From: an uncultured delta proteobacterium
GTDB lineage: Bacteria; Myxococcota_A; Polyangia; Polyangiales; JADJMO01
DNA length: 48,732 bases
Reading direction: 5' to 3'
Assembly (NCBI GenBank): GCA_903923175.1
Contig: CAIXWQ010000822.1
Span: forward strand, 1-48,732
The first letter of the stretch is position 1. Each line of letters opens with the position of its first letter. A program made the position numbers and the translations under genes. The notes under the pieces were generated by a model. The model was not told the DNA's origin and made no database searches. It saw nothing but the letters and a program-made list of their open reading frames with translations. Shown piece by piece: positions 6,392 through 44,573 of the stretch.

Positions 6392-6557
6392 GTCCGTGCC
6401 CTCGCTGGTGCCCTGCGCGCGTCCCGGACTCCCACGCCACCGAGCGGCCGAGTCGCCGTCGCGGGGGGGCCGGAGGGGGCGCGTGGGCCGTCCTCCGACG
6501 AAGGTCGATGGGGTCGGCCCGGCCGATGCGCGCGCCAGCCATCTCTATCCATGGTTT

Positions 6558-6572
6558 TGTTGCAGTGCAACA
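6558..6572. promoter_or_regulatory. Putative PhaR operator box 3 (perfect palindrome TGTTGCA-G-TGCAACA)
   Basis: AT-rich perfect inverted repeat with a TGC-N3-GCA core, in the fabH-like/MFS divergent intergenic region. Confidence 0.7.
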
Positions 6573-6750
6573 TCAAATGAGCGGCGCGCCCTTTGGAGTC
6601 CGGGGCGTGGACACCTGAGACGTCGGCCCCTGGCGCGGGGTCACTCACCGTCATGACGCGCATATTTGTGCGTCAAACGCGCGATGCGTGCGCGCTCGCC
6701 CCGCGTCGGATTCCCATTGATCTCTCTCGCGAGCCTGGCAGAGTCCGCGC

Positions 6751-6765
6751 TTGTGCGGCGCAACA
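6751..6765. promoter_or_regulatory. Putative PhaR operator box 4 (TTGTGCGGCGCAACA)
   Basis: Same consensus, about 45 nt upstream of the MFS start. Confidence 0.6.
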
Positions 6766-6769
6766 CGCG

Positions 6770-6785
6770 CGGCACGAAATACGCA
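6770..6785 (+). promoter_or_regulatory. Possible sigma-54 -24/-12 promoter (CGGCACGAAATACGCA)
   Basis: GG-N10-GC spacing with a GGCACG -24 element, immediately after box 4. The -12 element lacks the usual TT. Confidence 0.3.
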
Positions 6786-6809
6786 ATCGCGGGCGCGGGA
6801 CTCGATTCC

Positions 6810-8078: not shown

Positions 8079-8150
8079 TCGGCGGCCTCCTCGCTTCGAC
8101 TTCGCTCGTCCCCATCGGCGCCTCTCCGCGCCTCCCCAGGAGTCTCACCC

Positions 8151-9686: not shown

Positions 9687-9726
9687 GCTGAGCGGCCGTC
9701 GCACTCGCGGGACTGGAGGCTTAGCC

Positions 9727-11043: not shown

Positions 11044-11230
11044 ACCGGTCGAGGGCGCCGGGCTTCGCGTCGTCGAACCCGGAGTCCTCCCTTCGACCCA
11101 TGGCCGAGCTCGACGGCGAGCTCCGCGAGTCGAGAACCCTGCGCGGCGAATTCGGGTACGATTCGCCGCGCTCCAACCACGAGCCGACGGCCCCCGCGCC
11201 GTGGCCGACCCATCGCGCGCGAGGTGCCGA

Positions 11231-15124: not shown

Positions 15125-15263
15125 CCGACCAGGGTAGCGCGCGCGGCGGGCGGGCCGTGCGCAGAGCGTCCAGCGGCCCCCGCGCGGATCGCGATGGCTC
15201 TGCCATGCGCGGGTCGGCGCGACCGAAGCGCGTCGCGTGCTACGATCTCCGGGAGTCGCCTCG

Positions 15264-17312: not shown

Positions 17313-17373
17313 GGCGCGCGCGCGTCGGTTGCATGAGCTTCGCCCCTCGGCCGTCCAACCCGCTCCAAGCCCG

Positions 17374-18396
17374 ATGTCGCTCGCCCGCCCGCCCAACCGC
17401 CGCCTCGTCCTGCTCGCCGCGCTCGCGTCGCTGCTCCCCGCGTTCGCGCTGATCGCGCGTGAGGCCCCCGCCGCGACCGGCTTCGCCTGCGGCGAAGGCA
17501 AGGCGAACCTCGCCGCCAAGAAGTGCGACTGCCCGGCCGGCAAGGTCGAGTCGACGAGCGCGAAGGGGGTCTCGAGCTGCGTCGACGCGCCCAAGCCGGC
17601 GTCGTCGATCAAGCCAGTCGGCTCGACGGCCGGCAAGCCGGTCGCGGCGGTCGCGCCGGTCGCGCCCGCGTCCAAGTGCCCCGCCGGCATGGTGGCGATC
17701 CCCGGCGGCACCTTCCCGCTCGAGGAGACGAAGAAGTCGATGACCGTCGGCGCGTTCTGCGTCGACGTGAACGAGGTCACCGTCGCCGACTACTCGCTCT
17801 GCGTCGGCGCGAACGCGTGCGCGCGCGCCCCCGCCTACTCGGACGATCCCAAGCTCAATTCCCAGCTGTGCAACGCGGGCCGCGCGGGGCGCGCGCTGCA
17901 CCCCGTCAACTGCCTCGTGTGGGAGGAGGCGAGCGCGTACTGCTCGTTCGTCAAGAAGCGCCTCCTGGTCGACGAGGAGTGGGAGTGGCTCGCGCGCAAC
18001 GGCGATCAGGCGAGCAAGTTCCCGTGGGGCTCGGCCGCGCCCGACGAGTCGCGCGCCAACGTGTGCGGCGCCGAGTGCCCGCCGCACGTGCTCGGGATGT
18101 TCTCCCGCCAGCCGAAGGCGATGATCCCGGGCGACGACGGCTTCGCCGAGACGGCGCCGGTCGGCTCGTTCCCGAAGGGGCAGAACCGCTGGGGCGTGAA
18201 CGATCTCGCCGGCAACGTGTGGGAGTGGACGTCGACGTCCGACGTGTCGCCGAAAGACGGCAGCTCGATGAAGATCATGCGAGGTGGCAGCTTCCTCTCG
18301 GAAGACTCGCTGATGCTCCAGTCCGGGCTGCGCGCGGTCGAGAAGCCCGACGCGCGGATCGCGCAAATCGGCATCCGCTGCGCGAAAAACCTGTAG
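17374..18396 (+). CDS. Secreted FGE-sulfatase (SUMF1/EgtB/PvdO family) domain protein
   Basis: Signal peptide, CPAGMVAIPGG, EVTVADY, HPVNC, EWEWLAR, FPWG, PVGSFPKG and DLAGNVWEW...RGGSF...GIRCA. Confidence 0.9.
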   Translation: MSLARPPNRRLVLLAALASLLPAFALIAREAPAATGFACGEGKANLAAKKCDCPAGKVESTSAKGVSSCVDAPKPASSIKPVGSTAGKPVAAVAPVAPASKCPAGMVAIPGGTFPLEETKKSMTVGAFCVDVNEVTVADYSLCVGANACARAPAYSDDPKLNSQLCNAGRAGRALHPVNCLVWEEASAYCSFVKKRLLVDEEWEWLARNGDQASKFPWGSAAPDESRANVCGAECPPHVLGMFSRQPKAMIPGDDGFAETAPVGSFPKGQNRWGVNDLAGNVWEWTSTSDVSPKDGSSMKIMRGGSFLSEDSLMLQSGLRAVEKPDARIAQIGIRCAKNL

Positions 18397-26510: not shown

Positions 26511-26546
26511 GCGAAAGCCCCAGCAATGGGGCTTTCGCGTTTTTTA
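26511..26546 (+). terminator. Rho-independent terminator
   Basis: 12-bp perfect stem GCGAAAGCCCCA-GCAA-TGGGGCTTTCGC followed by GTTTTTTA, between convergent genes. Confidence 0.88.
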
Positions 26547-26564: not shown

Positions 26565-27557
26565 TCAGCGCGCGGGCGGCGGCGCGGCCGAGCGACCGGC
26601 CTCCTTGTTGGGCGACGACGGCGTGTGGATCACCGGGCCGCTGCGGATGACGTTCGAGCGCAGGCGCTGATCGAGGATCTCCTCGGCGCGCCGCCCCGCC
26701 TCCAGCATCTTCTCGGTCTCGACACCCGTGCGCACGCCCATCTCGCCGAGCAGCGCGACCAGGTCCTCGCTGCACGCGTTGCCGGTGAAGCCGGCCGAGT
26801 ACTTCGCCGCGCCGGTGGCCGGCTGGCCGCCGATCGCGCCCATCGACGAGTCGACGTAGCGAACGCCCATCTCGAGCATCGCGATCGAGTTCACGATGCC
26901 GGTGCCGCGCGTGTCGTGGAAGTGCGCGATGAACTCCGCCTTCGGGAAGTCGGCCTTGAGCTGGCCGATGCGCTGCCGCACGAGGACCGGGTTCGCCATG
27001 CCGGTGGTGTCGCCGAGCATGATCGTCTGCGCGCCTTCTTCGAGGTAGAAGCGCGTGATCTTCGCGACGTCTTCGTACGGCACGTCGCCGCCGACCGGGC
27101 AGCCGTAGACGGTGCCCGCACAGCCGACGACGCGGATCCCGAGCGCGTGCGCGCGCTTCATGATGGCCGCGTGCTCGGCCATCGCCTCGGTGTGCGTCAT
27201 GCGGAAGTTGAGGGTGTTGTGCTTCTCGCTCGAGGAGATCATCAGGATGATCTCGTCGGCGCCGTGGCCCTCCTTCTGGCAGACCTCGAGCCGGTCGAAG
27301 CCCTTGGTGTTGGGCATCAGCACAAGGTGCGAGACGCCGGGGCGGCGCTTGATCCCCTTGAGCACCTCCACGCAGTCGGCGAACTGCGGCAGCAGCTTCG
27401 GGTGCGAGAACGAGGTGACCTCGACCTTCTTGAAGCCGGCGTCGGTGATCCGATCGATCATCTCGATCTTCTGCGCCGTGGGGACGAGGACGGGCATCGA
27501 CTGCAGGCCGTCGCGGGCCCAGCACTCGCAGACGGTGACGGATTCCGGGATGGGCAC
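26565..27557 (-). CDS. Hydroxymethylglutaryl-CoA lyase family (DRE-TIM metallolyase)
   Basis: GTG start after GAGGAG. ARDGLQ, EVTSFSHPKLLPQFAD, LGDTTGMANP, HFHDTRG, DSSMGAIGGQP and GNACSED. The usual GGCP motif reads GGQP here. Confidence 0.88.
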   Translation of the reverse strand: MPIPESVTVCECWARDGLQSMPVLVPTAQKIEMIDRITDAGFKKVEVTSFSHPKLLPQFADCVEVLKGIKRRPGVSHLVLMPNTKGFDRLEVCQKEGHGADEIILMISSSEKHNTLNFRMTHTEAMAEHAAIMKRAHALGIRVVGCAGTVYGCPVGGDVPYEDVAKITRFYLEEGAQTIMLGDTTGMANPVLVRQRIGQLKADFPKAEFIAHFHDTRGTGIVNSIAMLEMGVRYVDSSMGAIGGQPATGAAKYSAGFTGNACSEDLVALLGEMGVRTGVETEKMLEAGRRAEEILDQRLRSNVIRSGPVIHTPSSPNKEAGRSAAPPPAR

Positions 27558-27597
27558 GGGGAGACTCCTCGCAGCGTTCGGTTCGGGGCGGGTCACT

Positions 27598-28356
27598 TCA
27601 CGGGTCAGCGCCCGAATTGCCACGAATCGGGCGCGCCGGGGAGTCGCCGAGGGCGACCCGGAGCTCGTCGGGCGGTTCGACCGCCAGCGTCACGATTCTC
27701 CCCCCCTCACGACGCCACGCGCCGTGCAGAGAGCGCTCGCCGATCCGGGCCTCGAACGGCGCGAAGCCGTCCGTTCCCGGCTCGCCACGCCAGCGGACGT
27801 CGACCGAGCGGGTGTCGGCGCGTAGCCCCGTTCGCAGCACCTTCAGCGCGCTCTCCTTGGCGCTCCAGACGAGCGTCACGCGCGCGTCGCGCTCCGCCGG
27901 CACCCCCACCAACCCGTCGATGCGCGCCTGCTCGGCCTCGGTGAAGAACAGCTCGGCCAGCGCCTCCGCGCGCGGCTCGACGAGCTCGACGTCGCAGCCC
28001 AGGCGGCAACCGATCGGTCCGACCGCGGCCATCGCGACCCCGCCGCTGTGGCTGAGCGACAGCTCGACCGGCGCCGGTTCGCCGTCGAGCAGCGGCTCGG
28101 GCGAGCCGTCCGCCCTCGCGCGGACGGACCACTCCGCCCGCGCGTCGGCTGGCGCGCCGAACGCGCCGAACGCGCCGAACGCGCCGAACGCGTCGGACGC
28201 CGCGCGCAGGACGCAGCGCGCCGTCCAGCGACCGAGCCGGAAGTCCGCCGCGCGCTTGGGCACGCGCAGCGCCGCGAGCGTCACGCGCTCCGCCGCCGAC
28301 AGCCACGCGTCGTCGGCGGGGACGTCGTCGAGGGTGCGGAGCAGCCAGCCGATCAC
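27598..28356 (-). CDS. Sfp-type 4'-phosphopantetheinyl transferase
   Basis: WLSAAE, GR, SLSHSG, LGCDVE and WSAKESALK motifs. Confidence 0.92.
   Translation of the reverse strand: MIGWLLRTLDDVPADDAWLSAAERVTLAALRVPKRAADFRLGRWTARCVLRAASDAFGAFGAFGAFGAPADARAEWSVRARADGSPEPLLDGEPAPVELSLSHSGGVAMAAVGPIGCRLGCDVELVEPRAEALAELFFTEAEQARIDGLVGVPAERDARVTLVWSAKESALKVLRTGLRADTRSVDVRWRGEPGTDGFAPFEARIGERSLHGAWRREGGRIVTLAVEPPDELRVALGDSPARPIRGNSGADP
28153..28192. repeat. In-frame 9-bp tandem repeat (CGCGCCGAA)x4 in the PPTase gene
   Basis: Encodes AFGAFGAFGAFGA. Confidence 0.85.
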
Positions 28357-28377
28357 GACGCGCTCACGGGTAAGCCG

Positions 28378-34044
<5,667 letters not shown>

Positions 34045-34120
34045 GAGACGTCCTCCTGGCGCACTCGCGCCCGCGCTCCTCCGCGGAATCCATCCGCAGA
34101 GGAGCCCTCCGTGACGTACG

Positions 34121-37100
34121 TCAGGCCATCGCGCTGCGGAGCGGCTCGAGCAGCTTCGCGTCGACGGCGACGGGGAGCGTCACCGTCCGATAGCCCTTCA
34201 CCTCGACGTAGACGCGGCCGTCTTCGTCGACGATGCGCGCGTCGTAGCCGCCGCCCTCGCCCTCGAGCGGCACCGCGATCGCGAAGAGCCGAGGCCCGCC
34301 CGCCTCGTGGAGCGGGCGCAGCGTCGTCACGCGGTCGATGTGCTGCGGGAGCCCCATCTTGCCGCTCGTCCCCATCTCCCAGATCCCCGCCGTCTGGAAG
34401 CACGACTCGATGAGCCGCGGCGCCGTGAGCGTCGGCAGCTCCGCGGGGTGGTGGTTGTCGGGGAGCGCGTGCGTGATCAGCGCGGCTGCCCCGTCGCCGA
34501 CGCGCCACGCGCGCTCGAGCACGCGGTACGCCGGGCCGTGGAAGTAGATCCGGTAGATGTCGCCCGAGACGACGTCGGCCGGACCCGCTCCGTTCGGAGC
34601 CTTCGGTGCGGCGACGGCGTCGGCCTCCGGCGCGTGACGACCGAGCCTCACGCGCGCGCGGTAGTGCTCCGTCGTCTGCTCGCCCTGCCCGGGGAGCACG
34701 CGCTTGCCGAGCAGCGTGCAGCGCGCGACCACGTCGGCGCCGTCGGCCTCGAGCACCGCGTGCACGGTCAGCGTGCGCGGCTCGTCGCGGTAGAATTTGA
34801 AGGGCGCCGCGAACTCGACGTCCTCGACGCTCGACACCGACCAGCCAGGGAGCAGCAGCGACGCGACCTCCGCGAACGCCTCGACGCCCATGACGCCCGG
34901 CAGCACGGCCACGCCGTCGATCCGGTGATCGAAGAGGAAGCCCTGCTTGGCCGGGTCGAGCGTGGTCTCGACGCAGAGGCCGTCCTGCACGGTCATCCCG
35001 GTGACGTGACCGAGCATCGGTCCGCGCAGCGGGTGCGTCGCGGCGAAGCTGGCCACATCGACGCCGCCCGCCTCGTCGCGCTCTTTCAGCAGCATGCCGA
35101 GCGTGCCCGCCAGCACGACCTCGCCGACGCCCACCTCGCGCGCGAGCTCCTGGCGGACGACCGGGATGCCGACCGTCGGCGGGAGCATCTCGATCCCCGC
35201 CGCCTCCATCAGCTTCGGGATGGAGCCGCGCGACGCCATGCCGATCGAGGCCCACGCCGTCCAGTCGATCGCCACGCCGCGCGTCCCGGGGCGGGTCGAG
35301 CGCAGGCTCGAGGCGACCTTGCAGAGGAAGTCGTTCGCCGCGGAGTAGTCGGTCTGCCCGCCGTTGCCGAAGCGCCCGGCGATCGAGCTGAAGACGACGA
35401 GCGCGCCGAGCTCCACGCCGTCGAGGCCGCGGAGCAGGTGGAACATCCCCTCGGCCTTCGCGTCGAACACGAGGTCGAATTCGTCGGCCGACTTGTCGGG
35501 GACGAGCCGGCTGATCTCGAGCCCGCCGGCGTGCACCAGCACGTCGACGCGCGGGGCTTCGGCGCGGATCGCCGCCATCACCGCGGTCATCGCGTCGGCG
35601 TCGCGCAGGTCGGCGCTGAACCAGCGCGCCTTGCCGCCGGCCGACTCGACCGCGGCCATCGCCCGCTTGGCCGCCAGCGCGCGCTCGAGCGTCGCGAGCT
35701 CGCGCTCCACGAGCGCCGGGGTCGCGCGCTCGCCGCGCGCCTTGAGCCGCTCGTAGAGATCGCGCTTGAGCGCCTCGCGATCGCCCTCGACGCGCTCGAG
35801 ATCCGGATTCGCACGGTCGGGCGCGGGGATGCGATCGAGCAGGAAGAACGTGCCGCCCGTCGCCGCCGCGAGATCGGCCGTGATGGCGGAAGTGATGCTG
35901 CCGGCCGCGCCGGTGACCACGAAGACCTTGCCGCCGCCGCCAGCGCCGCTCGGGAGGCTCGGCGAGGCGTCCTGCACCGGCCGCTCGGCGAGCCCGACCG
36001 TCCAGCGCAGGCCGTCCTTGCGGCCGATCTCGACCGCGCCCGGATCGCGCAGCGTCTCGTCGACGAGGCTCGCGACGATCTCCGCCGCGTCCGCCGCGAC
36101 GGGGAAGTCGACGCACTTCACGAGCGCGCCCGGCTTCTCGCGCGCGATCGCCTTGGTGAAGCCGGTCACCGCGCCGCCGAGCGGGAGCTGCGCCCCCGCG
36201 GCGTCGTAGCCGTGCTGGCCGCCGAGGCGCGTGGCCGACACGAAGAACGCCCCGGGCGCGTCGAGCGACGCGTACAGCGCGCGCATCGTCGCGTGCGCGA
36301 GCTTCACGCGCACGTGCACCGCGGCGCGCCAGCGCGCGACGTCCATCGCCGCGAGCGGCCCCTCGGCGTCGAGCGCCGGCAGCCAGTACACGCCGTGGAT
36401 CGGCCCCTCCGCGAGCCAGCCCGCGAGCCGAGCCTCGAGCAGCTCGCGCGTGGGCGCGTCGCGCACCACGAGCGGCTGCGCGCCGTGCGCCGAGAGGGCG
36501 CCGACCAGCGCGTCGGCGATGCCGCCGGCATCGGCCATGACCACCACGCGCTTGCCCTCGAGCGAGGCGCCGGTGGCGCGGCAGACGTCGAGCGACGGGC
36601 GGAGCACCGGCACCGGCACGCGCCGCGGGTAGCGCGTCTGATCGCCGGAGCTCGATTCCGTCTGCGCGCTCGGGCTCGGGCTCGGGACCGGAGTCGCGTT
36701 CGCGTTCGCGTCTGCGTTCGCGCGCCGAGCCGCGAGGTCCGGCCTTCGCGTGTGCACGAAGCGGATCACGTGGCCGAGCGTCGGGTAGTCGCGCAGCTTG
36801 ATCGAGTCGTCGCGCGGGATGTCGTACGCCGCGCGGATGGTGGCGAAGACCTCGGCCTGCTTGACGGTGTCGACGCCGAGATCGGCCTCGAGATCGAGGT
36901 CGAGCTCCAGCATGTCGCGCGGGTAGCCGGTCTTCTCGGCGACGAGCGCGAGGACGCGTTCGGCCACTTCGTCGACGCCCGCTGCTGGATTCGCAGCCGG
37001 AGCCGCAGCCGGAGGCGGCACCGCAGCCGCCGTCGCCGTCGCGACCGCGACGAGGTCCGGCCTTCGCGCGTGCACGAAGCGGATCACGTGGCCGAGCGTC

Positions 37101-40100
37101 GGGTAGTCGCGCAGCTTGATCGAGTCGTCGCGCGGGATGTCGTAGGCCTGGCGGATGGTGGCGAAGACCTCCGCCTGCTTGACGGTGTCGACGCCGAGAT
37201 CGGCCTCGAGATCGAGATCGAGCTCGAGCATGTCACGCGGGTACCCCGTCTTCTCGGCGACGAGCGCGAGGACGCGCTCGGTGACCTCGTCGGCCGCGCT
37301 CGTCGCAGCCGCGGCCGGGGCAGCCCCCGGGGCCGCCGCGGGCGACGGAGCCGCGGCCGGGACCGCGGCGAGATCGGGCCTTCGCGAGCGCACGAACCCG
37401 ATCACGTGTCCGAGCGTCGGGTAGTCGCGAAGCTTCACGGTGTCGTCGCGCGGGATGTCGTACGCCGCGCGGATGGTGGCGAAGACCTCCGCCTGCTTCA
37501 CCGTGTCGACGCCGAGATCGGCCTCGAGATCGAGATCGAGCGCGAGCATGTCGCGCGGGTAGCCGGTCTTCTCGGTGACGAGGGCGAGCACGCGCTCCGT
37601 GACCTCGTCCGTCGCCGGAGCCGGAGCCGCGCCCGGAGCCGGCGTCGTCACCGCAGCCGCAGCCGGAGCCGGAGCCGGCGCAGCGTGCGCGCCGAGGTCC
37701 GGCCTTCGCGATCGCACGAAGCCGATGACGTGCCCGAGCGTCGGGTAGTCGCGCAGCTTCACCGCGTCGTCGCGCGGGATGTCGTACGCCGCGCGGATGG
37801 TGGCGAAGACCTCCGCCTGCTTGACCGTGTCGATGCCGAGATCGGCCTCGAGATCGAGATCGAGCGCCAGCATGTCGCGCGGATAGCCCGTCTTCTCGGT
37901 GACGAGCGCCAGCACGCGCTCGGCGATCTCGTCTCTCGCGGCCGTCGCGGCCGTCGCGGCCGGAGCCGGAGCCGCCGTCGGCGAAGGAGCGGCAGCCGGA
38001 GTCGGAGCCGAGACCGGCGTCGGCGCGCGCGGCGGAGGCTCGTTCATCGCCTTGCGGGGCGCCTGCGCCTGCTGCTGTGCGTGCGCGGCCACGCCGAGAT
38101 CCTTCACCCGCAGCGTGTGGTGCACGACCTCGAGTTGCGGCGACGCCTGCCCGCTCACGCCCGCGAGCCAGCGCTCGTAGGCGGCTCGGTCTGCGACGCG
38201 GTTCTGGAAGCCGAGCGCGCTCGGGCTCGGTCTCGCCCCCAGCGTCGTCCTGTGCACCAGCGACATGCTGATCTGCGAGCCGAAGCCCGCGGCGAGTCGA
38301 AGCGCGAACTCGATCGGGTAGCTCCCCCCCTTCGAGAGGTTGAGCACCCCGAGGTCGGGATCGACCTCCTTGTAGTTCGGCACCTTCGGGACGACGCCTG
38401 TCTCGAGCGCCTTCACCGCGATGACGTCCTCGAGGCCGGCGGCCATCGGGTGGCCGGTGAAGCCCTTCGTGTTCGCGATCACGATCTGATCGGTCAAGTC
38501 GCCGAAGACGTGGCGCAGGGCCGTGATCTCCGCCGCCGCGCTGCCGCCCCGAGCGGGCGTGTACGTCTCGTGCGACATGAACACCAGCTGCGTCGCGATC
38601 TGCCGGCGCGAGATCCCCCAGCGCTCCTCCGCGTCGCGCACCAGCGACTCCATCGTCGCCGTGATGTGCTCGACGTCGAGCCGGGTGCCGTGGAACGCGC
38701 TGTTGGCCGTCACCGTGGCGAGCACCTCGCCGATGGGCGTGACGGCGCGCTCGCGGGCCGACTCCGGGCTCTCGATGACGAGGCCCGCTGCGCCCATCCC
38801 GACGATCATGCCGTGGCGACGGCGATCGAACGGCGTCGCCGCGTCGGAGACCGACTCGTCGGTGGCGGCCGCGCCCGCCGCGAGGAAGCCCGTGCCGAAC
38901 CACCCGAGCAGCCGATCGGACGTGATGTCGTCGGCCGCGACGACGAGGACGCGACGGCAGCGCCCGGCCGCGATCCAGTCCTCCGCGAGCGTGATCGCCT
39001 GGGTGGTGCTGGCGCACGCCGAGTTGATCTGCGTGTTGGGGCCGCGCGCGTGGATGTACTCGGCGAGCTGCGAGTGCCCCATCGCGAGCACCTTGAACAG
39101 GAAGCGCCGGTCGTAGCCGAACGCCTTGGTGGCGATCTCCTCGGTCAGCTCGCGGACGCGCCGATCGAGCTCGATGCCGAGCGCGTCGTTCGGGCCGAGC
39201 CGCGCGCGGAGGCTGGTCAGCTCGGCGAGCCGCTCCCTGCGCGCGTGGTCCTCGTGGAAGCGATCGAGATCGCCGACGAGCTCGTTGATGCCGGGGAACG
39301 CCGAGGCGAAGACGATCCCGGTGTCGTCGCGCATCGACTCGGGGAGGGACCAGCCGTCGGGGAGGTACGTCCCCTTGGTGGTGCGCTTGTAGCGAGGCAC
39401 CAGCGGGATGCCGGCGTCGCGCAGCGCGTCGATCGCGACCGCGATCGCCATGCGGCTGGTGACGTCGAGCGCCGAGGCGCGATCGGCCGGGACGCCGTAC
39501 TCCGCCGTCAGATCGAACGCCCCGGCGCGCCCGGCGAGCTTGATCACGTCGGCGACGTCGTCGATGATCTCGAAGACCGGATCCTGCCCCTCCTTCTTCA
39601 CGAGGCGGGTGACGTGCTTGTCCACCATCGCCCTGCGCAGCCGCGCGGGGATGACGTCGATGAACTGCTCGCCGGCGAGGATGCGCGCGACGTTGCCGTC
39701 GTCGAAGATGCGCTCGGTGCCGGGCAGCCCCAGCGCCGCGCCCGTGATGACCGGCGCCTCGCGCCGCGCGCTCGTCGCCCCCGCGCCCCCCACGCCCCCC
39801 GAGATCCCAGCCCGATCCAGCAGCTGCAAGAACATCCGCCCGATCTCGGCCTCACGCCCACCGCCGAACGCCGTTCCCGTTCCCGTGCTCGTGCTCGTGC
39901 TCGGGCTCGCGCTCGGACGCCCCGGCAACTCCGACGTCGCCACCGCGCGCGACGCGCTCAGCGCGCTCGCCGCCGCGCTCATCGCTCTCTCCTCCACCGC
40001 AGCGGTCCCCAGCCCTCGCGAATACAGCCCGCACAGCGCGTGATTCAGCGAGGTCACGTCCCCGAGCTTCGGGTGGTTGGTCCCGAGCGTGAGCACGTCG

Positions 40101-42835
40101 CCCTTGTCGCCGAGCACGTCGTCCGCGAAGCCCTGCAGCGCCTTCTTCGGTCCGACCTCGACGAACACCCGCGCGCCCTGCGCGTAGAGCGTCTGCAGCC
40201 CTTTGACGAACTGCACCGGCGCCGCCACCTGCTCGCCGAGCAGGTCGATCATCTGCGCGAGCGTGACGTCGGCCGGATAGAGCTCGCCGGTCACGTTGGC
40301 GACGATCGGCACCTTCGGCGTCGCGAGGCGCAGCCGCGCGAGCTGCACCTTGAGCGGCGCGCTCGCCGGCGCGACGATCTTCGTGTGGAAGGCGTGGCTC
40401 ACCGAGAGCATCACGACGGCCATGCGCGCCGCCTGGAGCTTCTCGACGGCCTCCTTGACCCCATCGGTGGAGCCGCCGATCACGACCTGCTTGTTGCTGT
40501 TGAGGTTCGCCGTCACCACGTAGCCGGTGACCGTCTTCAGGATCTCCTGGATCTTCTCCGAAGAGCCCACCGCCGCGGCCATGAGCCCGCAGTCGCCCAC
40601 CGCGACGTGGCTCATCTCCTTGCCGCGCGCGCTCACCGCCTCGAGCGCGTCGTCGAAGGGCAGGCACCCGGCCGCGACCAGCGCGCCGTACTCGCCGAGA
40701 CTGTGCCCCATGACCATGTCGGGGCGTACGCCGTAGGCGTCGAGCACCCGCGCGAGCGCGAGATCCACGGTGAGCACCGCGGGCTGCGTCACCGCCGTCT
40801 GCCGCAGCGCCTCCTCGGCGCCCTTCACCGCGTTTTCGTCCTTCGGATCGACGAAGACCAGCTCGCTCAGCGCCTTGCCGAGCAGCGGCGTCAGCTTGCG
40901 GTCGGCGTCCGCGAAGAGCTCGCGCACCAGCGGCTCGCGCTCGCGCAGCTCGCGGAGCATGTTCGCGTACTGCGAGCCCTGACCCGTGAAGAGGAACGCG
41001 ACCTTCGGCGCCGGGCCGGTCCCGCGGAACACGCCCTGCGCGCGCAGCGCCTTCCAAGCGTTGGGCGCGTTGGACTGCATCGCCGACTCGGCCTTCGCCG
41101 CCTTGGCGGCGAGCTCCGACGCGTCGCCGAAGTCGATCGCGATGCGCTCTTGCGCCTTCAGATCACGCTCCGCCGGCGCCGCGGGCTGCGGGGCGATACC
41201 CGCCTCGGCTTCCTTGCGCGCCCTCACGAGCCGCTGGAGAAGCTCCCCCTCGGTCGCGGCGCCGAGCACCAGAGCCCCACGCAGCGGCGCCTTCGCGGCA
41301 GCCTTCGCGCCCGCGCCCCCGTTCGCCAGCTGCTCCTTCGCCATCGCCTTCGCCCCCTCGCCGTCCGCCGTCGGCTCCGCGGAGAAGCCGCGTCCCCGCG
41401 GCTTGCTCGTGAGCCGCCCCGGCACGTGCTCCTCGAGCACCATGTGGAAGTTGGTGCCACCGAACCCGAACGCGCTCAGGCCCGCGGCGCGCACGCCCGA
41501 CGCCGGGCGCTCCCAAGGGCGCAGCTCGGTGTTCACGCGGAAGGGGGAGCGCGACCAGTCGTAGTTGGGATTCGGCTTCGCGTAGTTCAGGCTCGGCGGC
41601 AGCACCTTCTCGTGCAGCGCGAGCACCGCCTTGAGCAGCCCCGCCGCGCCGGCCGCGCTCTTCAGGTGGCCGATGTTCGACTTCACCGACCCGAGCGCCA
41701 CCGAGCCCGGGCGCAGCCCCGCGCCCAGCGTCTCCGAGAGTGCGTTGACCTCGACGACGTCGCCGACGGGCGTCGAGGTGCCGTGCGCCTCGATCATCAT
41801 CCCCTCGGAGGGCGCGACCCCCGCGGCCTTCCACGCGCGCTGCACCGCGAGCCTTTGCCCGATCGGGTTCGGCGCCGTGATCCCCTTGCCCTTGCCGTCG
41901 CTCGAGCCCGCCATCCCGCGCAGCACGGCGTAGATGCGATCGCCCGCCTTCTCCGCGTCCGCGAGGCGCTTGAGCACGAACAGCGCCGCGCCCTCGCCCA
42001 TCACGAAGCCGTCGGCGCCGTCGGCGAACGGGCGCGTGCCGGTGGCCGAGAGCGCGCCGATCTTCGAGAACTTCACGAACGTGCTGGCGCCCATGTTGCG
42101 GTCGACGCCGCCCGTGACCACCGCGTCGAACTCGCCCGCGACGAGCCCCTCGCGCGCGGCGCTGATCGCCGCCATCGCGGAGGCGCAGGCGGCGTCGCAG
42201 GTGAAGTTCGGCCCGCGCAGGTTGAAGACGTTGGCGATGCGACCGGCGATGCAGTTGGACAGCTCGCCCGGCATCGTGTCTTCGGTGATCGGCGGCAGCT
42301 CCTCGCCGATCCGCTGGTGGTACTCGGCGACGATCCGCGCCCGTGTCGCGGCCGGCAGCGCGCCGAACGCCGCGCCTTGCTCGAGCCAGCGCGCGAACTC
42401 GGGGAACGTCGCGCGGAACGACGTCCGGTAGTTCTTCTCGCCCCCCATCGCGTTGCCGAGGATCACCGCGGTGCGCTCGAGGTCGAGCGGACGATCGGGG
42501 TGCCCCGCGTCGATCAGCGCCGCGCGCGCGCACGCGACGGCCCACTTCTGCCCCTCGTCCATCGCCTCCGCGACGCGCGGCGGAATGGCGAGCTTCCACG
42601 CCGTCGGCTCCCACGGCGCGCTGCGCACCCAGCCGCCGATCTTGGAGTACGTCTTGTCCGGCGCGGCGTGATCGTCGTCGAAGTACAGCGTCGAATCCCA
42701 GCGATCGGCCGTCACGTCCGAGACGCTGTAGCGACCGCCTTTGACGTTCTCCCAGAAGGCGCCCGCGCTCGGGGCGTCCGGGAGGATGGCGCTGATGCCG
42801 ACGACGGCGATGGCTTGGTGGCTGGTGTCGTCCAT
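34121..42835 (-). CDS. Iterative type I PKS/FAS, PfaA-like: KS-AT-KS-ACPx4-KR-DH
   Basis: KS1 (DAACAS, EAHGTST, NIGHLK); AT (GQGSQ, GHSLGE, HAFH, malonyl-type); KS2 (NSACAS, SHETYT, TGHPM); four EKTGYP...LEADLG(I/V)DTVKQ ACPs; KR (VTGAAGSIT, YSAAN); DH (DHRIDGVAVLPG). No ER or TE seen. Confidence 0.93.
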   Translation of the reverse strand: MDDTSHQAIAVVGISAILPDAPSAGAFWENVKGGRYSVSDVTADRWDSTLYFDDDHAAPDKTYSKIGGWVRSAPWEPTAWKLAIPPRVAEAMDEGQKWAVACARAALIDAGHPDRPLDLERTAVILGNAMGGEKNYRTSFRATFPEFARWLEQGAAFGALPAATRARIVAEYHQRIGEELPPITEDTMPGELSNCIAGRIANVFNLRGPNFTCDAACASAMAAISAAREGLVAGEFDAVVTGGVDRNMGASTFVKFSKIGALSATGTRPFADGADGFVMGEGAALFVLKRLADAEKAGDRIYAVLRGMAGSSDGKGKGITAPNPIGQRLAVQRAWKAAGVAPSEGMMIEAHGTSTPVGDVVEVNALSETLGAGLRPGSVALGSVKSNIGHLKSAAGAAGLLKAVLALHEKVLPPSLNYAKPNPNYDWSRSPFRVNTELRPWERPASGVRAAGLSAFGFGGTNFHMVLEEHVPGRLTSKPRGRGFSAEPTADGEGAKAMAKEQLANGGAGAKAAAKAPLRGALVLGAATEGELLQRLVRARKEAEAGIAPQPAAPAERDLKAQERIAIDFGDASELAAKAAKAESAMQSNAPNAWKALRAQGVFRGTGPAPKVAFLFTGQGSQYANMLRELREREPLVRELFADADRKLTPLLGKALSELVFVDPKDENAVKGAEEALRQTAVTQPAVLTVDLALARVLDAYGVRPDMVMGHSLGEYGALVAAGCLPFDDALEAVSARGKEMSHVAVGDCGLMAAAVGSSEKIQEILKTVTGYVVTANLNSNKQVVIGGSTDGVKEAVEKLQAARMAVVMLSVSHAFHTKIVAPASAPLKVQLARLRLATPKVPIVANVTGELYPADVTLAQMIDLLGEQVAAPVQFVKGLQTLYAQGARVFVEVGPKKALQGFADDVLGDKGDVLTLGTNHPKLGDVTSLNHALCGLYSRGLGTAAVEERAMSAAASALSASRAVATSELPGRPSASPSTSTSTGTGTAFGGGREAEIGRMFLQLLDRAGISGGVGGAGATSARREAPVITGAALGLPGTERIFDDGNVARILAGEQFIDVIPARLRRAMVDKHVTRLVKKEGQDPVFEIIDDVADVIKLAGRAGAFDLTAEYGVPADRASALDVTSRMAIAVAIDALRDAGIPLVPRYKRTTKGTYLPDGWSLPESMRDDTGIVFASAFPGINELVGDLDRFHEDHARRERLAELTSLRARLGPNDALGIELDRRVRELTEEIATKAFGYDRRFLFKVLAMGHSQLAEYIHARGPNTQINSACASTTQAITLAEDWIAAGRCRRVLVVAADDITSDRLLGWFGTGFLAAGAAATDESVSDAATPFDRRRHGMIVGMGAAGLVIESPESARERAVTPIGEVLATVTANSAFHGTRLDVEHITATMESLVRDAEERWGISRRQIATQLVFMSHETYTPARGGSAAAEITALRHVFGDLTDQIVIANTKGFTGHPMAAGLEDVIAVKALETGVVPKVPNYKEVDPDLGVLNLSKGGSYPIEFALRLAAGFGSQISMSLVHRTTLGARPSPSALGFQNRVADRAAYERWLAGVSGQASPQLEVVHHTLRVKDLGVAAHAQQQAQAPRKAMNEPPPRAPTPVSAPTPAAAPSPTAAPAPAATAATAARDEIAERVLALVTEKTGYPRDMLALDLDLEADLGIDTVKQAEVFATIRAAYDIPRDDAVKLRDYPTLGHVIGFVRSRRPDLGAHAAPAPAPAAAAVTTPAPGAAPAPATDEVTERVLALVTEKTGYPRDMLALDLDLEADLGVDTVKQAEVFATIRAAYDIPRDDTVKLRDYPTLGHVIGFVRSRRPDLAAVPAAAPSPAAAPGAAPAAAATSAADEVTERVLALVAEKTGYPRDMLELDLDLEADLGVDTVKQAEVFATIRQAYDIPRDDSIKLRDYPTLGHVIRFVHARRPDLVAVATATAAAVPPPAAAPAANPAAGVDEVAERVLALVAEKTGYPRDMLELDLDLEADLGVDTVKQAEVFATIRAAYDIPRDDSIKLRDYPTLGHVIRFVHTRRPDLAARRANADANANATPVPSPSPSAQTESSSGDQTRYPRRVPVPVLRPSLDVCRATGASLEGKRVVVMADAGGIADALVGALSAHGAQPLVVRDAPTRELLEARLAGWLAEGPIHGVYWLPALDAEGPLAAMDVARWRAAVHVRVKLAHATMRALYASLDAPGAFFVSATRLGGQHGYDAAGAQLPLGGAVTGFTKAIAREKPGALVKCVDFPVAADAAEIVASLVDETLRDPGAVEIGRKDGLRWTVGLAERPVQDASPSLPSGAGGGGKVFVVTGAAGSITSAITADLAAATGGTFFLLDRIPAPDRANPDLERVEGDREALKRDLYERLKARGERATPALVERELATLERALAAKRAMAAVESAGGKARWFSADLRDADAMTAVMAAIRAEAPRVDVLVHAGGLEISRLVPDKSADEFDLVFDAKAEGMFHLLRGLDGVELGALVVFSSIAGRFGNGGQTDYSAANDFLCKVASSLRSTRPGTRGVAIDWTAWASIGMASRGSIPKLMEAAGIEMLPPTVGIPVVRQELAREVGVGEVVLAGTLGMLLKERDEAGGVDVASFAATHPLRGPMLGHVTGMTVQDGLCVETTLDPAKQGFLFDHRIDGVAVLPGVMGVEAFAEVASLLLPGWSVSSVEDVEFAAPFKFYRDEPRTLTVHAVLEADGADVVARCTLLGKRVLPGQGEQTTEHYRARVRLGRHAPEADAVAAPKAPNGAGPADVVSGDIYRIYFHGPAYRVLERAWRVGDGAAALITHALPDNHHPAELPTLTAPRLIESCFQTAGIWEMGTSGKMGLPQHIDRVTTLRPLHEAGGPRLFAIAVPLEGEGGGYDARIVDEDGRVYVEVKGYRTVTLPVAVDAKLLEPLRSAMA
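36737..37933 (-). repeat. Four tandem near-identical ACP-domain repeats (~240 bp each) with Ala/Pro linkers
   Basis: Repeats of DEV.ERVLALV.EKTGYPRDML.LDLDLEADLG.DTVKQAEVFATIR.AYDIPRDD..KLRDYPTLGHVI.FV..RRPDL. Confidence 0.95.
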
Positions 42836-42896
42836 GACGGAGCCTCGGGAGTGGAACTCGGTGACGGAATCGGTCGCGGGGGGCGGGCCCTGGCGT

Positions 42897-44573
42897 TCAG
42901 CTCGGGCGCGTCTTGCCGTAGAGGGCGTCGCGCACCTGATCGAGGTCCTCGATCAGCCCGACCTGCCCGCGGTGGATGGCCTCGACGCCGAGCGCCTGGG
43001 CGAGCGGGCCGACGAGGCCGTCGTGCACGCCGCCGGCCCCGACCACCCAGCGCATCCCTTCGGAGACGACCTTGAGCGCGGCCTCGCGCGCGTAGATCCG
43101 CGAGAGCGCGGCGAGCGTCGGCGCGTCGAAGCGGCCGTCGGTCTTCGCGTTCAGCGTGCCGGCCGCGGCGCCCGCCGCGCGCTTGGCGAACGCGCCGGCG
43201 CACTCGGCCCACGCGATGAGCTCGCCGAGGCGGAGCAGCACGTGCTGGTGGCGCGTGAGGCGCGCCGCGCGGCTGCGCTCGAGCAGCTCGCCCATCGCGC
43301 GGAGCCCCTGCGCCGCGAGCAGCGCGCCGACGTTCGGGTGCTTGCCGTGCAGCGCGTCGAGCTCCTTCGCCCGCTCCGCGTAGTACTGGCCGCGCGTCTT
43401 GAGGTGGAGCTGCCACCGGTCGCGCGCGATGGTCATCTCGAGGATCTCGCTCGTCCCCTCGTAGATGGTCGTGATGCGTACGTCGCGCTTGTACTTCTCG
43501 ACCATGTACTCGTGGACGTAGCCGTAGCCGCCGAGCGCCTGGATCGAGGCCTCGGCCGCGGCGTTCCCCGCCTCCGACGACATGTACTTGGCGATCGCGC
43601 CCTCGGTGTTGAACTGCCCCTGCATGCCGTGGGCTCCGTCGATGAGCTCCGCCGTCTCCTCGATGCACGCGCGCCCGGCCTCGAGCTGCGCGATGCGCGG
43701 GATGATCAGCTTGTGCGTGTACCCCTGCTTCTCGGAGAGCGGCGAGCCGCCTTGCACGCGCTCGACCGAGTACGGGATCGCGCGGTCGAGCGCCCCCCAG
43801 CCGGCGCCGAGGCCGAACGACGCGACCATCACGCGCGTGTACCCGAACACCGCCTGCGCCTTCAGCAGCCCTTGCCCCTCGACGCCGCCGATCAGGCGAT
43901 CGGCGTCGACGTACACCTCGTCGAGCGTGAGCGGCGCGGTGTTGGAGAGTCGGATTCCGTGCTTCTCCTCGTGCGGGCCGGCCGAGAACCCCTCGGCCCC
44001 TTTCTCCACCACGAACCACGAGGGCCCGTCCGGGGTCGCCGCGAGGATCGTGTAGAAATCGGCGATGCTGCCGTTGCTGATCCACTGCTTGGAGCCGCTG
44101 ATGCGGTAGCCGACGACCTTGCCGTCCTCCTCGATGCGCGTGGCGACGGTCTTGATCGCGCCGAGGTCGCTGCCGGCCGAGGGCTCGGTCGCGCCGTACG
44201 CGACGAGCGCCCCCTCCTCCGCGATCTTCGTCAGCCACTTCTGCTGCTGCGCAGGGGTGCCGCCGACGCTGATGGGATCGCTGCCGAGGAAGGTCGCGAG
44301 CACCGAGGTCGCGACCCCGAGATCCACGTGCGCGAGCGCCTCGCAGGTGCGATAGACGTCGAAGGTGGAGCCGCCGAGGCCGGAGTGCTCGGCGGGCACG
44401 AACAGCAGCTGGATGCCGAGCTCGCTGCCGTACATCCGGCGGATGACCTCGAGCGGGACCTCGTCGGCGCGATCCCACGCGAGGAGCTTCTCGTCCGAGA
44501 GCTCGCGGTGGGCGAATTCCTTCAACGAGGAGAGCACGCTCTCCAGCGATTCCTTGTCGAGTCCTGCGGCCAT
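42897..44573 (-). CDS. Acyl-CoA dehydrogenase with C-terminal extension
   Basis: ATG 44573 after GAGGAG. YGATEPSAGSD, ISGSKQWISNG, KHGIRLSNT, QALGGYGY and IYEGTSEI (catalytic Glu). Confidence 0.93.
   Translation of the reverse strand: MAAGLDKESLESVLSSLKEFAHRELSDEKLLAWDRADEVPLEVIRRMYGSELGIQLLFVPAEHSGLGGSTFDVYRTCEALAHVDLGVATSVLATFLGSDPISVGGTPAQQQKWLTKIAEEGALVAYGATEPSAGSDLGAIKTVATRIEEDGKVVGYRISGSKQWISNGSIADFYTILAATPDGPSWFVVEKGAEGFSAGPHEEKHGIRLSNTAPLTLDEVYVDADRLIGGVEGQGLLKAQAVFGYTRVMVASFGLGAGWGALDRAIPYSVERVQGGSPLSEKQGYTHKLIIPRIAQLEAGRACIEETAELIDGAHGMQGQFNTEGAIAKYMSSEAGNAAAEASIQALGGYGYVHEYMVEKYKRDVRITTIYEGTSEILEMTIARDRWQLHLKTRGQYYAERAKELDALHGKHPNVGALLAAQGLRAMGELLERSRAARLTRHQHVLLRLGELIAWAECAGAFAKRAAGAAAGTLNAKTDGRFDAPTLAALSRIYAREAALKVVSEGMRWVVGAGGVHDGLVGPLAQALGVEAIHRGQVGLIEDLDQVRDALYGKTRPS

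Follow-up and report, generated by a model that had tools for sequence, protein, structure and literature searches.

The window, by which we mean the whole 48,732-nucleotide stretch of DNA that was analysed, carries five co-directional minus-strand genes that encode, in order, an acyl-CoA dehydrogenase (ACAD), a polyketide synthase (PKS), an acetyl-CoA carboxylase (ACC), a phosphopantetheinyl transferase (PPTase) and an HMG-CoA-lyase-like protein (Table 1). The genes, their order and their intergenic gaps of 61, 76, 21 and 40 nt had been described in a first-pass annotation and are borne out by the open reading frames and domain matches, and the frames of all five genes are backed by GC3 values of 0.92-0.95. 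GAGGAG/GGAGG-like sites lie upstream of the ACAD, ACC and lyase starts. A terminator scan returned 4 sites against 4.2 expected and placed none of them in the four gaps; its sole strong hairpin lies past the lyase stop. As had also been described, enoyl reductase (ER), thioesterase (TE) and transporter domains are absent from the Pfam and NCBIfam matches of all five proteins.

Table 1. Features of the operon, with window coordinates and strand
Feature	Coordinates	Strand	Size or residues	Evidence and remarks
ACAD, VLCAD-type (predicted)	42897..44573	-	558 aa	First operon gene; Pfam ACAD N, M and C domains
PfaA-like iterative type I synthase	34121..42835	-	2904 aa	Pfam, NCBIfam, translation
Ketosynthase KS1	41426..42814	-	8-470	Active-site DAACAS
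Malonyl-type acyltransferase (MAT)	40106..41008	-	610-910	GHSLGE at 710, HAFH at 814; fabD 213 bits
Ketosynthase KS2	38246..39748	-	1030-1530	Cys-His-His triad kept
Four tandem acyl carrier proteins (ACPs)	36737..37939	-		Motif DLG[IV]DTVKQAE; Thr at the phosphopantetheine-Ser position in each
ACP Thr codon, T1670	37826-37828			
ACP Thr codon, T1778	37502-37504			
ACP Thr codon, T1884	37184-37186			
ACP Thr codon, T1990	36866-36868			
Ketoreductase (KR)	35156..36568	-	2090-2560	YSAAN at 2497
PKS-type dehydratase (PS-DH)	34166..35038	-	2600-2890	HxxxGxxxxP at 2637
Single-chain eukaryote-type ACC (predicted)	28378..34044	-	1888 aa	BC-BCCP(EAMKME)-ACC_central-CT; Pfam
Dedicated Sfp-type 4'-phosphopantetheinyl transferase (predicted)	27598..28356	-	252 aa	Pfam ACPS 51 bits
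Divergent HMG-CoA-lyase-like paralogue	26565..27557	-		Not a conserved cluster member
GC-rich hairpin	26511..26538	.	12 bp	Between the convergent lyase and 193-aa ORF; likely end of the transcription unit

The synthase, its carboxylase and their relatives

The domains of the synthase run KS1-MAT-KS2-ACPx4-KR-DH, without ER or TE, so that its earlier description holds once a second KS between MAT and ACPs is added. The HAFH motif of MAT is the malonyl motif. KS2 has FabF-type KAS II enzymes as its closest solved relatives (75 bits), and its triad is kept in nearly all related proteins (Cys in 66/66, the first His in 65/66, the second in 66/66). As read from the sequence, both ketosynthases are catalytically intact, and the domains together would cover every step of the fatty-acid cycle except enoyl reduction. 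Like the bacterial and myxobacterial PUFA synthases (PfaABCD/E; Pfa1-3), the operon is an iterative system with a dedicated PPTase and a PfaA-like subunit in which KS, MAT and KR occur together with tandem ACPs and a PKS-type DH. Unlike them, it lacks PfaB, the FabA-type DH/isomerase PfaC and the ER PfaD, places an extra KS in the same protein, falls just under the cut-off of the PfaA model TIGR02813 (995.5 against 1010.1 bits), and has ACPs that read DT, not DS. A genuine pfaD (639 bits) does occur in the same genome, beside a second PfaA-like gene on contigs C1365/C1296.

The carboxylase finds its best PDB matches in fungal, yeast and human ACC, and its BC, BCCP with biotin Lys (EAMKME near residue 628), central region and CT would make it a eukaryote-type single-chain ACC. 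A two-subunit methylcrotonyl- or geranyl-CoA carboxylase was rejected as a candidate: the protein is a single chain of 1888 aa with ACC_central, and over CT and the central region it scores 82 bits with fungal ACC compared with 29 bits for the geranyl-CoA carboxylase beta subunit. In a 301-genome sample of the phylum, the best 15 matches to the ACC central region all lie in genomes with ACAD and PKS.

Conservation was assessed over 78 related loci from about ten phyla, with the ACAD, PPTase and ACC counts taken over 64-72 of them. A strict rule places the ACAD directly before KS1 in 61 of 65 loci, and inspection of the four exceptions raised this number to 64; at locus L028 there is no ACAD within 2.9 kb. 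The PPTase follows the PKS in 65/72 loci, and the ACC sits between the two in 42/64, as an optional insert that one Chloroflexia locus replaces with a split BC+BCCP pair at the same position. The conserved module is ACAD-PKS-PPTase. Because dozens of loci in many phyla repeat the order ACAD-PKS-(ACC)-PPTase, the gene arrangement is not a product of chance. ACAD-PKS loci were found in Acidobacteriota, Myxococcota/'Deltaproteobacteria', Solirubrobacterales, Leptospiraceae, Saprospiraceae, KSB1, Calditrichia, Chloroflexia and Dormibacteraeota. The full architecture is present in Korobacteraceae, Bryobacterales and Chloroflexia MAG loci at 47-57% identity, and the Korobacteraceae loci are 53-56% identical in KR-DH. 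Downstream of 11 loci lies a GMC oxidoreductase gene, and WS/DGAT genes adjoin 7 loci.

Judged by architecture and gene order, the operon matches the 'Type R secondary lipid synthase' cluster. The main text of the paper that catalogued this type describes a pfaA homologue of the form KS-MAT-'CLF'-ACP(3-6)-KR followed by a PPTase, with a product then unknown, in clusters scattered over distant phyla (reference genomes Koribacter, Solibacter, Roseiflexus and Elusimicrobium; Shulse and Allen, 2011, PLoS One 6:e20146; PMC3098273). The domain order and the downstream PPTase recur here, and the ACC lies where Koribacter carries its ACC gene, between pfaA and the PPTase (PMC3098273). The same text names the second KS a CLF, whereas the Cys-His-His triad is intact here; it lists no DH and does not mention threonine, and the word 'dehydrogenase' does not occur in it, so that an ACAD partner is not described (PMC3098273). 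The lyase is a local addition. A match to a characterised pathway had been named as grounds for abandoning the first-pass reading; what that source offers is a cluster type catalogued in 2011, yet no characterised pathway (PMC3098273).

Type R clusters, spread over about ten phyla, hold some of the commonest PKS-like genes of soil Acidobacteriota. The present analysis narrows the question of what they make, and how, to a directly expressible three-gene core of ACAD, synthase and PPTase.

Threonine carrier domains and the phosphopantetheinyl transferase

To our knowledge, serine is otherwise the universal residue for phosphopantetheine attachment. All four ACPs of the synthase have threonine at this position, as do 269 of 269 motifs in its relatives, and in HMMER alignments with PigH, CurA and free ACPs the threonine falls on their DS serine. 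The PP-binding fold is matched at 79.7 bits (Pfam), with the conserved Ser of the (D/G)xDS motif absent, and relatives carry 1-6 tandem ACPs per protein. A canonical Pfa-type ACP of the same genome reads DLGVDSIKRVEIL. Our literature searches found no report of threonine at the ACP attachment position in Type R synthases.

The PPTase returned no PDB match at E<=0.01 from its sequence alone. Its AF2 model (pLDDT 87.2) is matched by Foldseek to AASDHPPT, PptT and Sfp at TM 0.62-0.66, and residues D122, E124, K167, E168 and K172 are invariant. The modelled pseudo-dimeric fold, together with the Asp, Glu, Glu and Lys, would place it in the Sfp-type (group II) enzymes, and the Type R P1b' motif hShxH appears in its translation as LSLSH. 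Four tandem carriers stand beside a dedicated Sfp-type PPTase. In the reading that we prefer, this enzyme would act on the carriers, with the invariant Thr of every ACP as phosphopantetheine attachment site. Perhaps a large lipid-synthase family spanning many phyla bears threonine-linked phosphopantetheine on all its tandem carrier domains, installed by a co-inherited PPTase as a private carrier/activator pair, and uses a VLCAD-type flavoprotein and ETF to complete the cycle in place of the nicotinamide-dependent enoyl reductase; we put this broader proposal forward tentatively, as a possibility that is more doubtful than probable. Carrier domains with an invariant, selected threonine as attachment residue would be a testable surprise. 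If threonine linkage is true, the textbook rule behind every ACP/PCP annotation tool changes, and an orthogonal carrier/PPTase pair becomes available for engineering.

The acyl-CoA dehydrogenase and the missing enoyl reduction

The ACAD consists of a core (residues 10-385) and a conserved C-terminal helical domain (residues 386-558). Its PDB matches are ACADs, and its catalytic Glu lies inside YEGTSE; in an alignment of 29 sequences the mean column identity is 76% and E372 is invariant. The AF2 model (pLDDT 88.5) has VLCAD, ACAD9, 3owa and 2z1q as its top Foldseek matches, at TM 0.74-0.80 over the full length. With its three domains, its catalytic Glu and the extra C-terminal helical domain, the modelled protein would belong to the VLCAD type. 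It shares with that family (human VLCAD/ACAD9; bacterial 3owa and 2z1q) the core, the C-terminal domain of ~170 aa and the YEGT Glu, but identity is only 20-27%, and unlike those enzymes it heads a synthase operon, has a C-terminal domain found only in synthase genomes and is proposed to work in the reductive direction. Its top NCBIfam match is acryloyl-CoA reductase AcrC, at 216 bits far under the cut-off of 640, with TcsD and RedW/PigA as weak matches. Full-length identity of the ACAD (558 aa) across loci is 54-83%, and the ACAD is better conserved than the PKS.

Apart from the window's own genome, the phylum sample yielded 17 with the ACAD C-terminal domain, and each of these has a full-length KS2; in 15 of them the domain lies on the contig of KS2, at a distance of ~3.5 kb. 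There were no matches in sampled genomes without KS2, and 7 genomes with a full-length KS2, mostly more distant, gave no match to the domain. The first-pass annotation had raised the idea of the ACAD as a substitute for the absent enoyl reductase. This reading has the best support, since the ER-less synthase is universally partnered by the ACAD. No ER appears among the conserved flank families of related loci either. Most likely the ACAD supplies the missing enoyl reduction, in a direction that we infer.

Enoyl reduction could instead be provided in trans, by a housekeeping FabI, FabK or FabV or by the genome's own PfaD, with the ACAD serving another role such as product recycling or degradation. 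PUFA and trans-AT systems often use ERs that act in trans, and the separate pfa cluster of this genome does supply a pfaD. PfaD was, however, found above cut-off in 0/5 other Type-R genomes (97-99% complete), and an ACAD subfamily that occurs only with the PKS, as first gene of its operon and with a better-conserved sequence, fits poorly with such a role; we regard this alternative as unlikely.

A candidate electron donor for the ACAD is encoded at many loci. In 50 of 78 loci EtfB-EtfA immediately precedes the ACAD, with a CCG Fe-S protein before it in 16, and in Terriglobia the ETF is encoded within the cluster. The window itself has no ETF genes, and the single EtfBA found in its genome has a housekeeping-like motif and is encoded on a different contig. 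As to an NADH-driven type, the cluster-encoded ETFs give a divided picture, with mixed best PDB matches and an intermediate diagnostic EtfB stretch; cluster EtfA matches the bifurcating Etf of C. difficile best. The enoyl-CoA-reducing systems Bcd-EtfAB, CarCDE and AcrC-EtfAB of anaerobes likewise combine an ACAD-fold enzyme with an adjacent EtfBA of its own, but they act on short CoA esters in fermentation, whereas ETF is missing from many Type R loci, including this one.

ETF and a CCG Fe-S oxidoreductase beside an ACAD are also the layout of catabolic acyl-CoA oxidation chains, and enediyne PKSE synthases have KS-AT-ACP-KR-DH without ER and an associated PPTase. On these grounds the synthase may be a polyene-forming iterative PKS whose released product is a polyenoic acid or conjugated polyene. 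In that case the ACAD would act oxidatively in tailoring or starter supply and pass electrons via ETF to the quinone pool. The ACAD homologues known to us that act on carrier-bound substrates (FkbI, TcsD, RedW/PigA) all oxidise, and the GMC oxidoreductase genes downstream of some loci point the same way. Such an ER-less line would, however, leave an extra dehydrogenase without obvious substrate, because the DH already gives the 2-enoyl bond. Tandem ACPs, a dedicated ACC and the adjoining WS/DGAT genes suggest bulk lipid flux, and the ACAD, besides the PPTase the sole partner conserved everywhere, fits a core cycle step over tailoring. We consider a polyene product rather improbable.

Our preferred reading, to which we give roughly an even chance, is that the operon is a self-sufficient, iterative, PUFA-synthase-like fatty-acyl factory with enoyl reduction by ACAD and ETF, ACPs that carry phosphopantetheine on threonine and a lyase outside the pathway. 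The single-chain ACC, with every domain for malonyl-CoA synthesis, would feed a MAT with the malonyl motif. ETF, encoded within the cluster in Terriglobia and, for the window's organism, the single one found in the genome, would pass electrons to the VLCAD-type flavoprotein for reduction of the trans-2-enoyl thioester. The product would be a long, largely saturated acyl chain, presumably handed to some separate acceptor because there is no TE. Flavoprotein/ETF-driven enoyl reduction within a megasynthase cycle would be a second testable surprise. The label of a self-contained lipid or polyketide operon holds in the sense of largely self-contained.

The lyase and the proposed link to leucine or terpene catabolism

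The first-pass annotation had linked the ACAD, carboxylase and lyase to leucine (Liu) or acyclic terpene (Atu) catabolism, as enzymes that may provide the PKS with a starter or extender that is branched or unsaturated. The lyase does score above the NCBIfam HMG-CoA lyase cut-off (NF004283, 255.9 against 246) and 204 bits against the B. subtilis enzyme; it follows the PPTase by 40 nt with no terminator in between, is probably co-transcribed with the operon here, and in the only related genome with the PKS again lies <=1.5 kb from the cluster. The other enzymes do not fit: the carboxylase is neither MCCase nor GCCase, the MAT is malonyl-type, and neither the ORFs nor Pfam reveal an enoyl-CoA hydratase within the operon. 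Also rejected was an isovaleryl- or citronellyl-CoA dehydrogenase: the ACAD has a VLCAD-like fold and scores just 46 bits against a cut-off of 545 with the isovaleryl-CoA dehydrogenase model NF008594.

Of the two co-occurrences with the PKS on which that proposal was staked, the one with the ACAD is upheld elsewhere and the one with the lyase is not. Because only 1 of 78 loci has the lyase beside the PKS, and three related genomes in which the PKS was not found (G002, G005, G007) carry lyase orthologues, the Liu/Atu reading fails; it is largely refuted, and we now consider it very improbable. The same evidence supports the other option raised, that the lyase is an unrelated, lineage-specific neighbour and not part of the pathway, which takes both the lyase and the Liu/Atu idea out of the picture.

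A canonical HMG-CoA lyase (394 bits) is encoded elsewhere in the genome and is ~39% identical to the window copy. The catalytic residues of HMG-CoA lyases (LiuE/HMGCL) are an Arg-Asp pair, a Glu, two His and a loop Cys. The window protein shares with them the TIM-barrel HMGL-like domain, RDGLQ and HFHDTRG, but the signature GGCPYAPG is replaced by GGQPATGAAKYSAG, with loss of the loop Cys to Gln and a 6-residue insert. The change from GGCPYAPG to GGQPATGA(A/S)KYSAG marks a small, family-restricted clade of lyases.

A Type R lipid synthase cluster

The gene set matches the catalogued, uncharacterised 'Type R' type of secondary lipid synthase cluster, for which the main text of Shulse and Allen (2011; PMC3098273) gives one pfaA homologue with the order KS-MAT-CLF-ACP(3-6)-KR and a PPTase gene downstream. 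The same text places an ACC gene between the pfaA homologue and the PPTase in Koribacter, and describes Type R as scattered over Acidobacteria, Elusimicrobia and Chloroflexi, with an unknown product; Koribacter versatilis, Solibacter usitatus and Roseiflexus are cultured carriers that it names (PMC3098273). The terms 'dehydrogenase', 'threonine' and 'serine' were absent from that main text in a term search, and no later characterisation of Type R was found in the openly licensed PMC and bioRxiv literature. The cluster was matched to no characterised pathway, in keeping with the unassigned product of the first-pass annotation, although its type had already been catalogued.

The five co-directional genes, with gaps of 61, 76, 21 and 40 nt, were borne out with the starts listed in the table, and Pfam and NCBIfam searches of the five proteins confirmed their families and found, as had been proposed, no ER, TE or transporter. 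All five ORFs have a GC3 of 0.92-0.95, the operon region forms no compositional break in a window of ~72% G+C, and the ACAD, ACC and lyase starts each have a GAGGAG/GGAGG-like site ahead of them. A consensus scan (4 sites/19.9 kb against 4.2 expected) placed no terminator-like site in the four intergenic gaps. The flanking genes are unrelated to the operon, namely a convergent 193-aa ORF, a molybdopterin oxidoreductase and a DUF4337 gene on one side, and a divergent TerB-like gene, a PLP decarboxylase and an M81 peptidase on the other. Far upstream (5366-12541) lie a KAS III (FabH-like) gene, an MFS transporter, an acetyl-CoA hydrolase/transferase and two ORFs without a family match, none of which showed a connection with the operon. 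FGE-sulfatase domains occur in two adjoining ORFs at 15237-18396, in one of them as a fusion with a Ser/Thr protein kinase domain. The ORF at 16675-18396, the second of the pair, overlaps its neighbour and could be a frame artefact.

Features of the operon and of the encoded synthase (nucleotide positions in the window unless given as PKS residues)
Feature	Position	Strand	Detail
ACAD	42897-44573	minus	first gene of five
PKS	34121-42835	minus	2904 aa
Carboxylase (ACC)	28378-34044	minus	1888 aa
PPTase	27598-28356	minus	
HMGL-like lyase	26565-27557	minus	
Hairpin	26511-26538		sole strong hairpin, after lyase stop (consensus scan)
KS1			motif DAACAS (translation, Pfam, motif positions)
MAT	GHSLGE at residue 710, HAFH at residue 814		Pfam, motif positions
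KS2	residues about 1030-1530		
Four ACPs			between KS2 and KR
ACP Thr codons	37826-37828, 37502-37504, 37184-37186, 36866-36868	minus	translation
KR			motif YSAAN
PS-DH			motif HxxxGxxxxP

Within the synthase, the HAFH of the MAT is the malonyl signature. The second ketosynthase, KS2, has FabF-type enzymes as its nearest solved relatives and retains its Cys-His-His triad across relatives (66/66, 65/66 and 66/66, respectively); it is therefore potentially an active ketosynthase, and its reading as a chain-length factor was rejected. The system is no canonical PUFA synthase: its PKS scores just below the TIGR02813 cut-off, and both a FabA-type DH and PfaD are lacking. The expectation that such synthases normally need PfaB/C/D partners fails for PfaC/D as a general rule, since PfaD exceeded its cut-off in none of five other Type R genomes (0/5). 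The window's genome does have a separate cluster of pfaD (639 bits) and a PfaA-like gene on other contigs (C1365:726-5022 and C1296:12159-16141).

Genes that travel with the synthase

A KR-DH query, with one genome kept per species, returned 231 relatives, the best 80 of which gave 78 loci whose neighbour content was assessed by tblastn with the window's proteins. Most of these loci are from Terriglobia, the others from Bryobacterales, Myxococcota/'Deltaproteobacteria', Solirubrobacterales, Leptospiraceae, Saprospiraceae, KSB1, Calditrichia, Chloroflexia and Dormibacteraeota. Conservation of the ACAD with the PKS, on which the proposed operon depended, held up well: where the sequence ahead of KS1 extends for 1.8 kb or more (65 loci), a strict rule placed the ACAD immediately upstream of KS1 in 61. 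Of the four exceptions, two (L016 and L036) have the ACAD as split or partial HSPs and a third (L071) has two ACAD-PKS units, so that only L028 shows none. The PPTase follows the PKS in 65 of the 72 loci with enough downstream sequence, and an ACC lies between the two in 42 of 64, with one more locus carrying it in fragments. The remaining flanking genes vary by phylum and include a GMC oxidoreductase after the PPTase (11 of 78 loci) and a convergent WS/DGAT wax-ester/diacylglycerol acyltransferase gene in seven acidobacterial loci (e.g. L003:15846-17834). A Chloroflexia MAG (L045:15262-16669) has its biotin carboxylase and BCCP as two genes downstream of the PPTase instead of the single-chain ACC. 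The Dormibacteraeota MAG locus L071 (5404-22448) is a split variant, in which an ACAD precedes a KS-MAT-KR-DH protein and a second ACAD precedes a KS-MAT-KS2-ACPn protein and an ACC.

Co-occurrence was also examined in 301 genomes from the window's phylum, 80 of which matched KS2 at E<=1e-80; 25 of these, the window's own included, have full-length or contig-cut matches of the Type R kind. In the other matching genomes the alignment is confined to residues about 220-510, which indicates another PKS class. This second class comprises ORFs of 3000-4100 aa in 55/301 genomes, with 51-64% identity to the KS2 segment (e.g. G045:C12:612208-613077). Matches to the C-terminal domain of the ACAD came from 18 genomes, one being the window's own; each of the other 17 carries KS2 as well, in 15 cases at a distance of about 3.5 kb on one contig, and the domain was found in none of the sampled genomes without KS2. 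KS2 genomes without a match to the ACAD domain are G248 (contig-cut), G042, G234, G043, G328, G143 and G041, mostly more distant. Of 40 genomes more closely related to the window's, G008 alone has the PKS (at locus L002), so that the cluster has a patchy distribution even inside the order.

The carboxylase is a single chain of BC, BCCP (EAMKME), ACC_central and CT domains, the central and CT part of which reaches 82 bits against fungal, yeast and human ACC and 29 bits against the geranyl-CoA carboxylase beta subunit. Of the 301 phylum genomes, 96 encode a single-chain ACC with a eukaryote-type central region (ORFs of ~1700-2200 aa), mostly without a Type R synthase. The 15 best matches to the window's ACC in these genomes (E<=1e-75) are all in genomes with the ACAD and PKS, and eight share a contig with the PKS, no more than about 8 kb from it.

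The lyase scores narrowly above the HMG-CoA lyase model cut-off (255.9 vs 246) and is alignable to solved HMG-CoA lyases, with a loop reading GGQPATGAAKYSAG where canonical enzymes read GGCPYAPG; a canonical HMG-CoA lyase with the latter loop (394 bits) is encoded elsewhere in the window's genome. The window copy belongs to a small clade from five genomes of one family (with loci L090-L093) whose loop reads GGQPATGA(A/S)KYSAG. Orthologues in G002, G005 and G007 are 83-86% identical and all have the GGQP loop, and the fourth carrier is G008; KS2 was not found at E<=1e-50 in G002, G005 or G007, genomes that are 91-99% complete. Among the 78 loci the lyase lies near the PKS in one, the closest relative L002, a locus that has no ACC and in which the lyase is found upstream of the ACAD. 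Because the lyase regions of G005, G007 and G008 have nothing in common with the window but the lyase and the 193-aa ORF, no island borders could be drawn from their synteny. This makes the lyase a family-level gene; two genomes have the PKS block next to it, on opposite sides. Its suspected status as an unrelated neighbour is supported by these distributions, and a functional link to the PKS cluster is very unlikely. The alternative in which Liu- or Atu-type catabolism would supply a starter drops out together with the lyase, as the carboxylase is of eukaryotic build, closest to fungal, yeast and human ACC, and the lyase accompanies 1/78 loci. In G005, the gene right after the lyase paralogue (L101:10662-11549) has a Lipid_desat domain (PF10520), of CarF/TMEM189 type.

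The acyl-CoA dehydrogenase as a candidate enoyl reductase

By its sequence, the operon has every activity of a fatty-acid cycle but enoyl reduction, as well as malonyl-CoA supply and carrier activation. The ACAD has a core alignable to ordinary ACADs, with the catalytic Glu within YEGTSE, and ~170 further residues after it. An AlphaFold model built on an alignment of 29 of 60 full-length homologues (pLDDT 88.5) has human VLCAD, ACAD9 and the bacterial long ACADs 3owa and 2z1q as its best full-length structural matches (TM 0.74-0.80). EtfB-EtfA genes are the direct upstream neighbours of the ACAD in many of the 78 loci (EtfA in 50, EtfB in 48; e.g. L073:160-1937 and L044:2-2533), on the opposite strand in Solirubrobacterales, and a CCG Fe-S protein gene precedes them in 16 loci.

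We propose that the ACAD may take the ER slot of the synthase, because it is, besides the PPTase, the sole gene that always travels with this ER-less enzyme, because its subfamily was found nowhere else in the sample, because of its long-chain (VLCAD) build, and because its own ETF and Fe-S protein in most acidobacterial loci would form a dedicated electron path. With the enoyl/acyl thioester couple at about -10 mV and menaquinol at about -74 mV, reduction through ETF would be feasible for hosts that use menaquinone, and the irreversible condensation that follows would draw it onward.

Several observations count against this reading. To our knowledge, carrier-linked ACAD homologues are all oxidative, the window holds no ETF genes, and the cluster ETFs gave mixed best hits by PDB bit score, with a diagnostic EtfB stretch intermediate between bifurcating and non-bifurcating types (GVQAEDGG-AQVGG in L073 vs GRQAIDGDTAQVGS in CarD and GKQAIDDDCNQTGQ in the human protein). 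The oxidative precedent would suit a polyene product made with the ACAD working oxidatively, a route that is, in our view, rather unlikely. A housekeeping reductase could instead act in trans, which we consider improbable. The constant pairing of the ACAD with an ER-less synthase strengthens the earlier suggestion that it may replace the absent enoyl reductase, and its reductive direction is what we infer; that the ACAD is the enoyl reductase of the cycle seems to us an evenly balanced proposition. No report of an ACAD/ETF-PfaA link was found in the openly licensed PMC and bioRxiv literature, and the ACAD/ETF partnership is, as far as we searched, undescribed.

Threonine carrier domains and the partner PPTase

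All four ACPs (36737-37939) read DLG[IV]DTVKQAE, and in HMMER alignments their Thr falls exactly on the phosphopantetheinylated Ser of PigH, CurA and free ACPs; the translation has no Ser near helix II in any of the four. The survey was extended to the 72 loci, out of 78, in which the region is present (it is lacking in six). One of the 72 has no motif, and Thr occupies this position in 269/269 ACP motifs from the remaining 71 loci, themselves from the best 80 of 231 relatives, and in 4/4 in the window. The codons in the 269 motifs are ACC (147), ACG (93), ACA (20) and ACT (9), and as a single base change would turn any of them into a Ser codon, Thr is maintained by selection. One ACP searched against 1.84 billion representative proteins gave 6011 hits at E<=0.001, and the best 150 of these comprise 119 that are Thr-only, 30 that are Ser-only, with LGIDSIKR of PUFA synthases or LGIDSIKKAQL, and one mixed fragment with one DS and two DT domains. 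The canonical Pfa-type ACP of the window's own genome keeps the usual Ser (DLGVDSIKRVEIL).

An S36T variant of E. coli ACP is reportedly not modifiable by AcpS. On the simplest reading of the sequences, the cluster PPTase, a nearly constant partner of the synthase, would modify the ACP Thr. No relevant report of Thr-linked phosphopantetheine was found in the openly licensed PMC and bioRxiv literature, and Thr carriers across a whole family are, as far as searched, undescribed. Searched by sequence, the PPTase had no match in the PDB. A model built from 27 rows (26 of 43 usable homologues and the window copy; pLDDT 87.2) nevertheless returned the fold of Sfp, PptT and AASDHPPT in a fold search, and residues D122, E124, K167, E168 and K172 of the PPTase are invariant.
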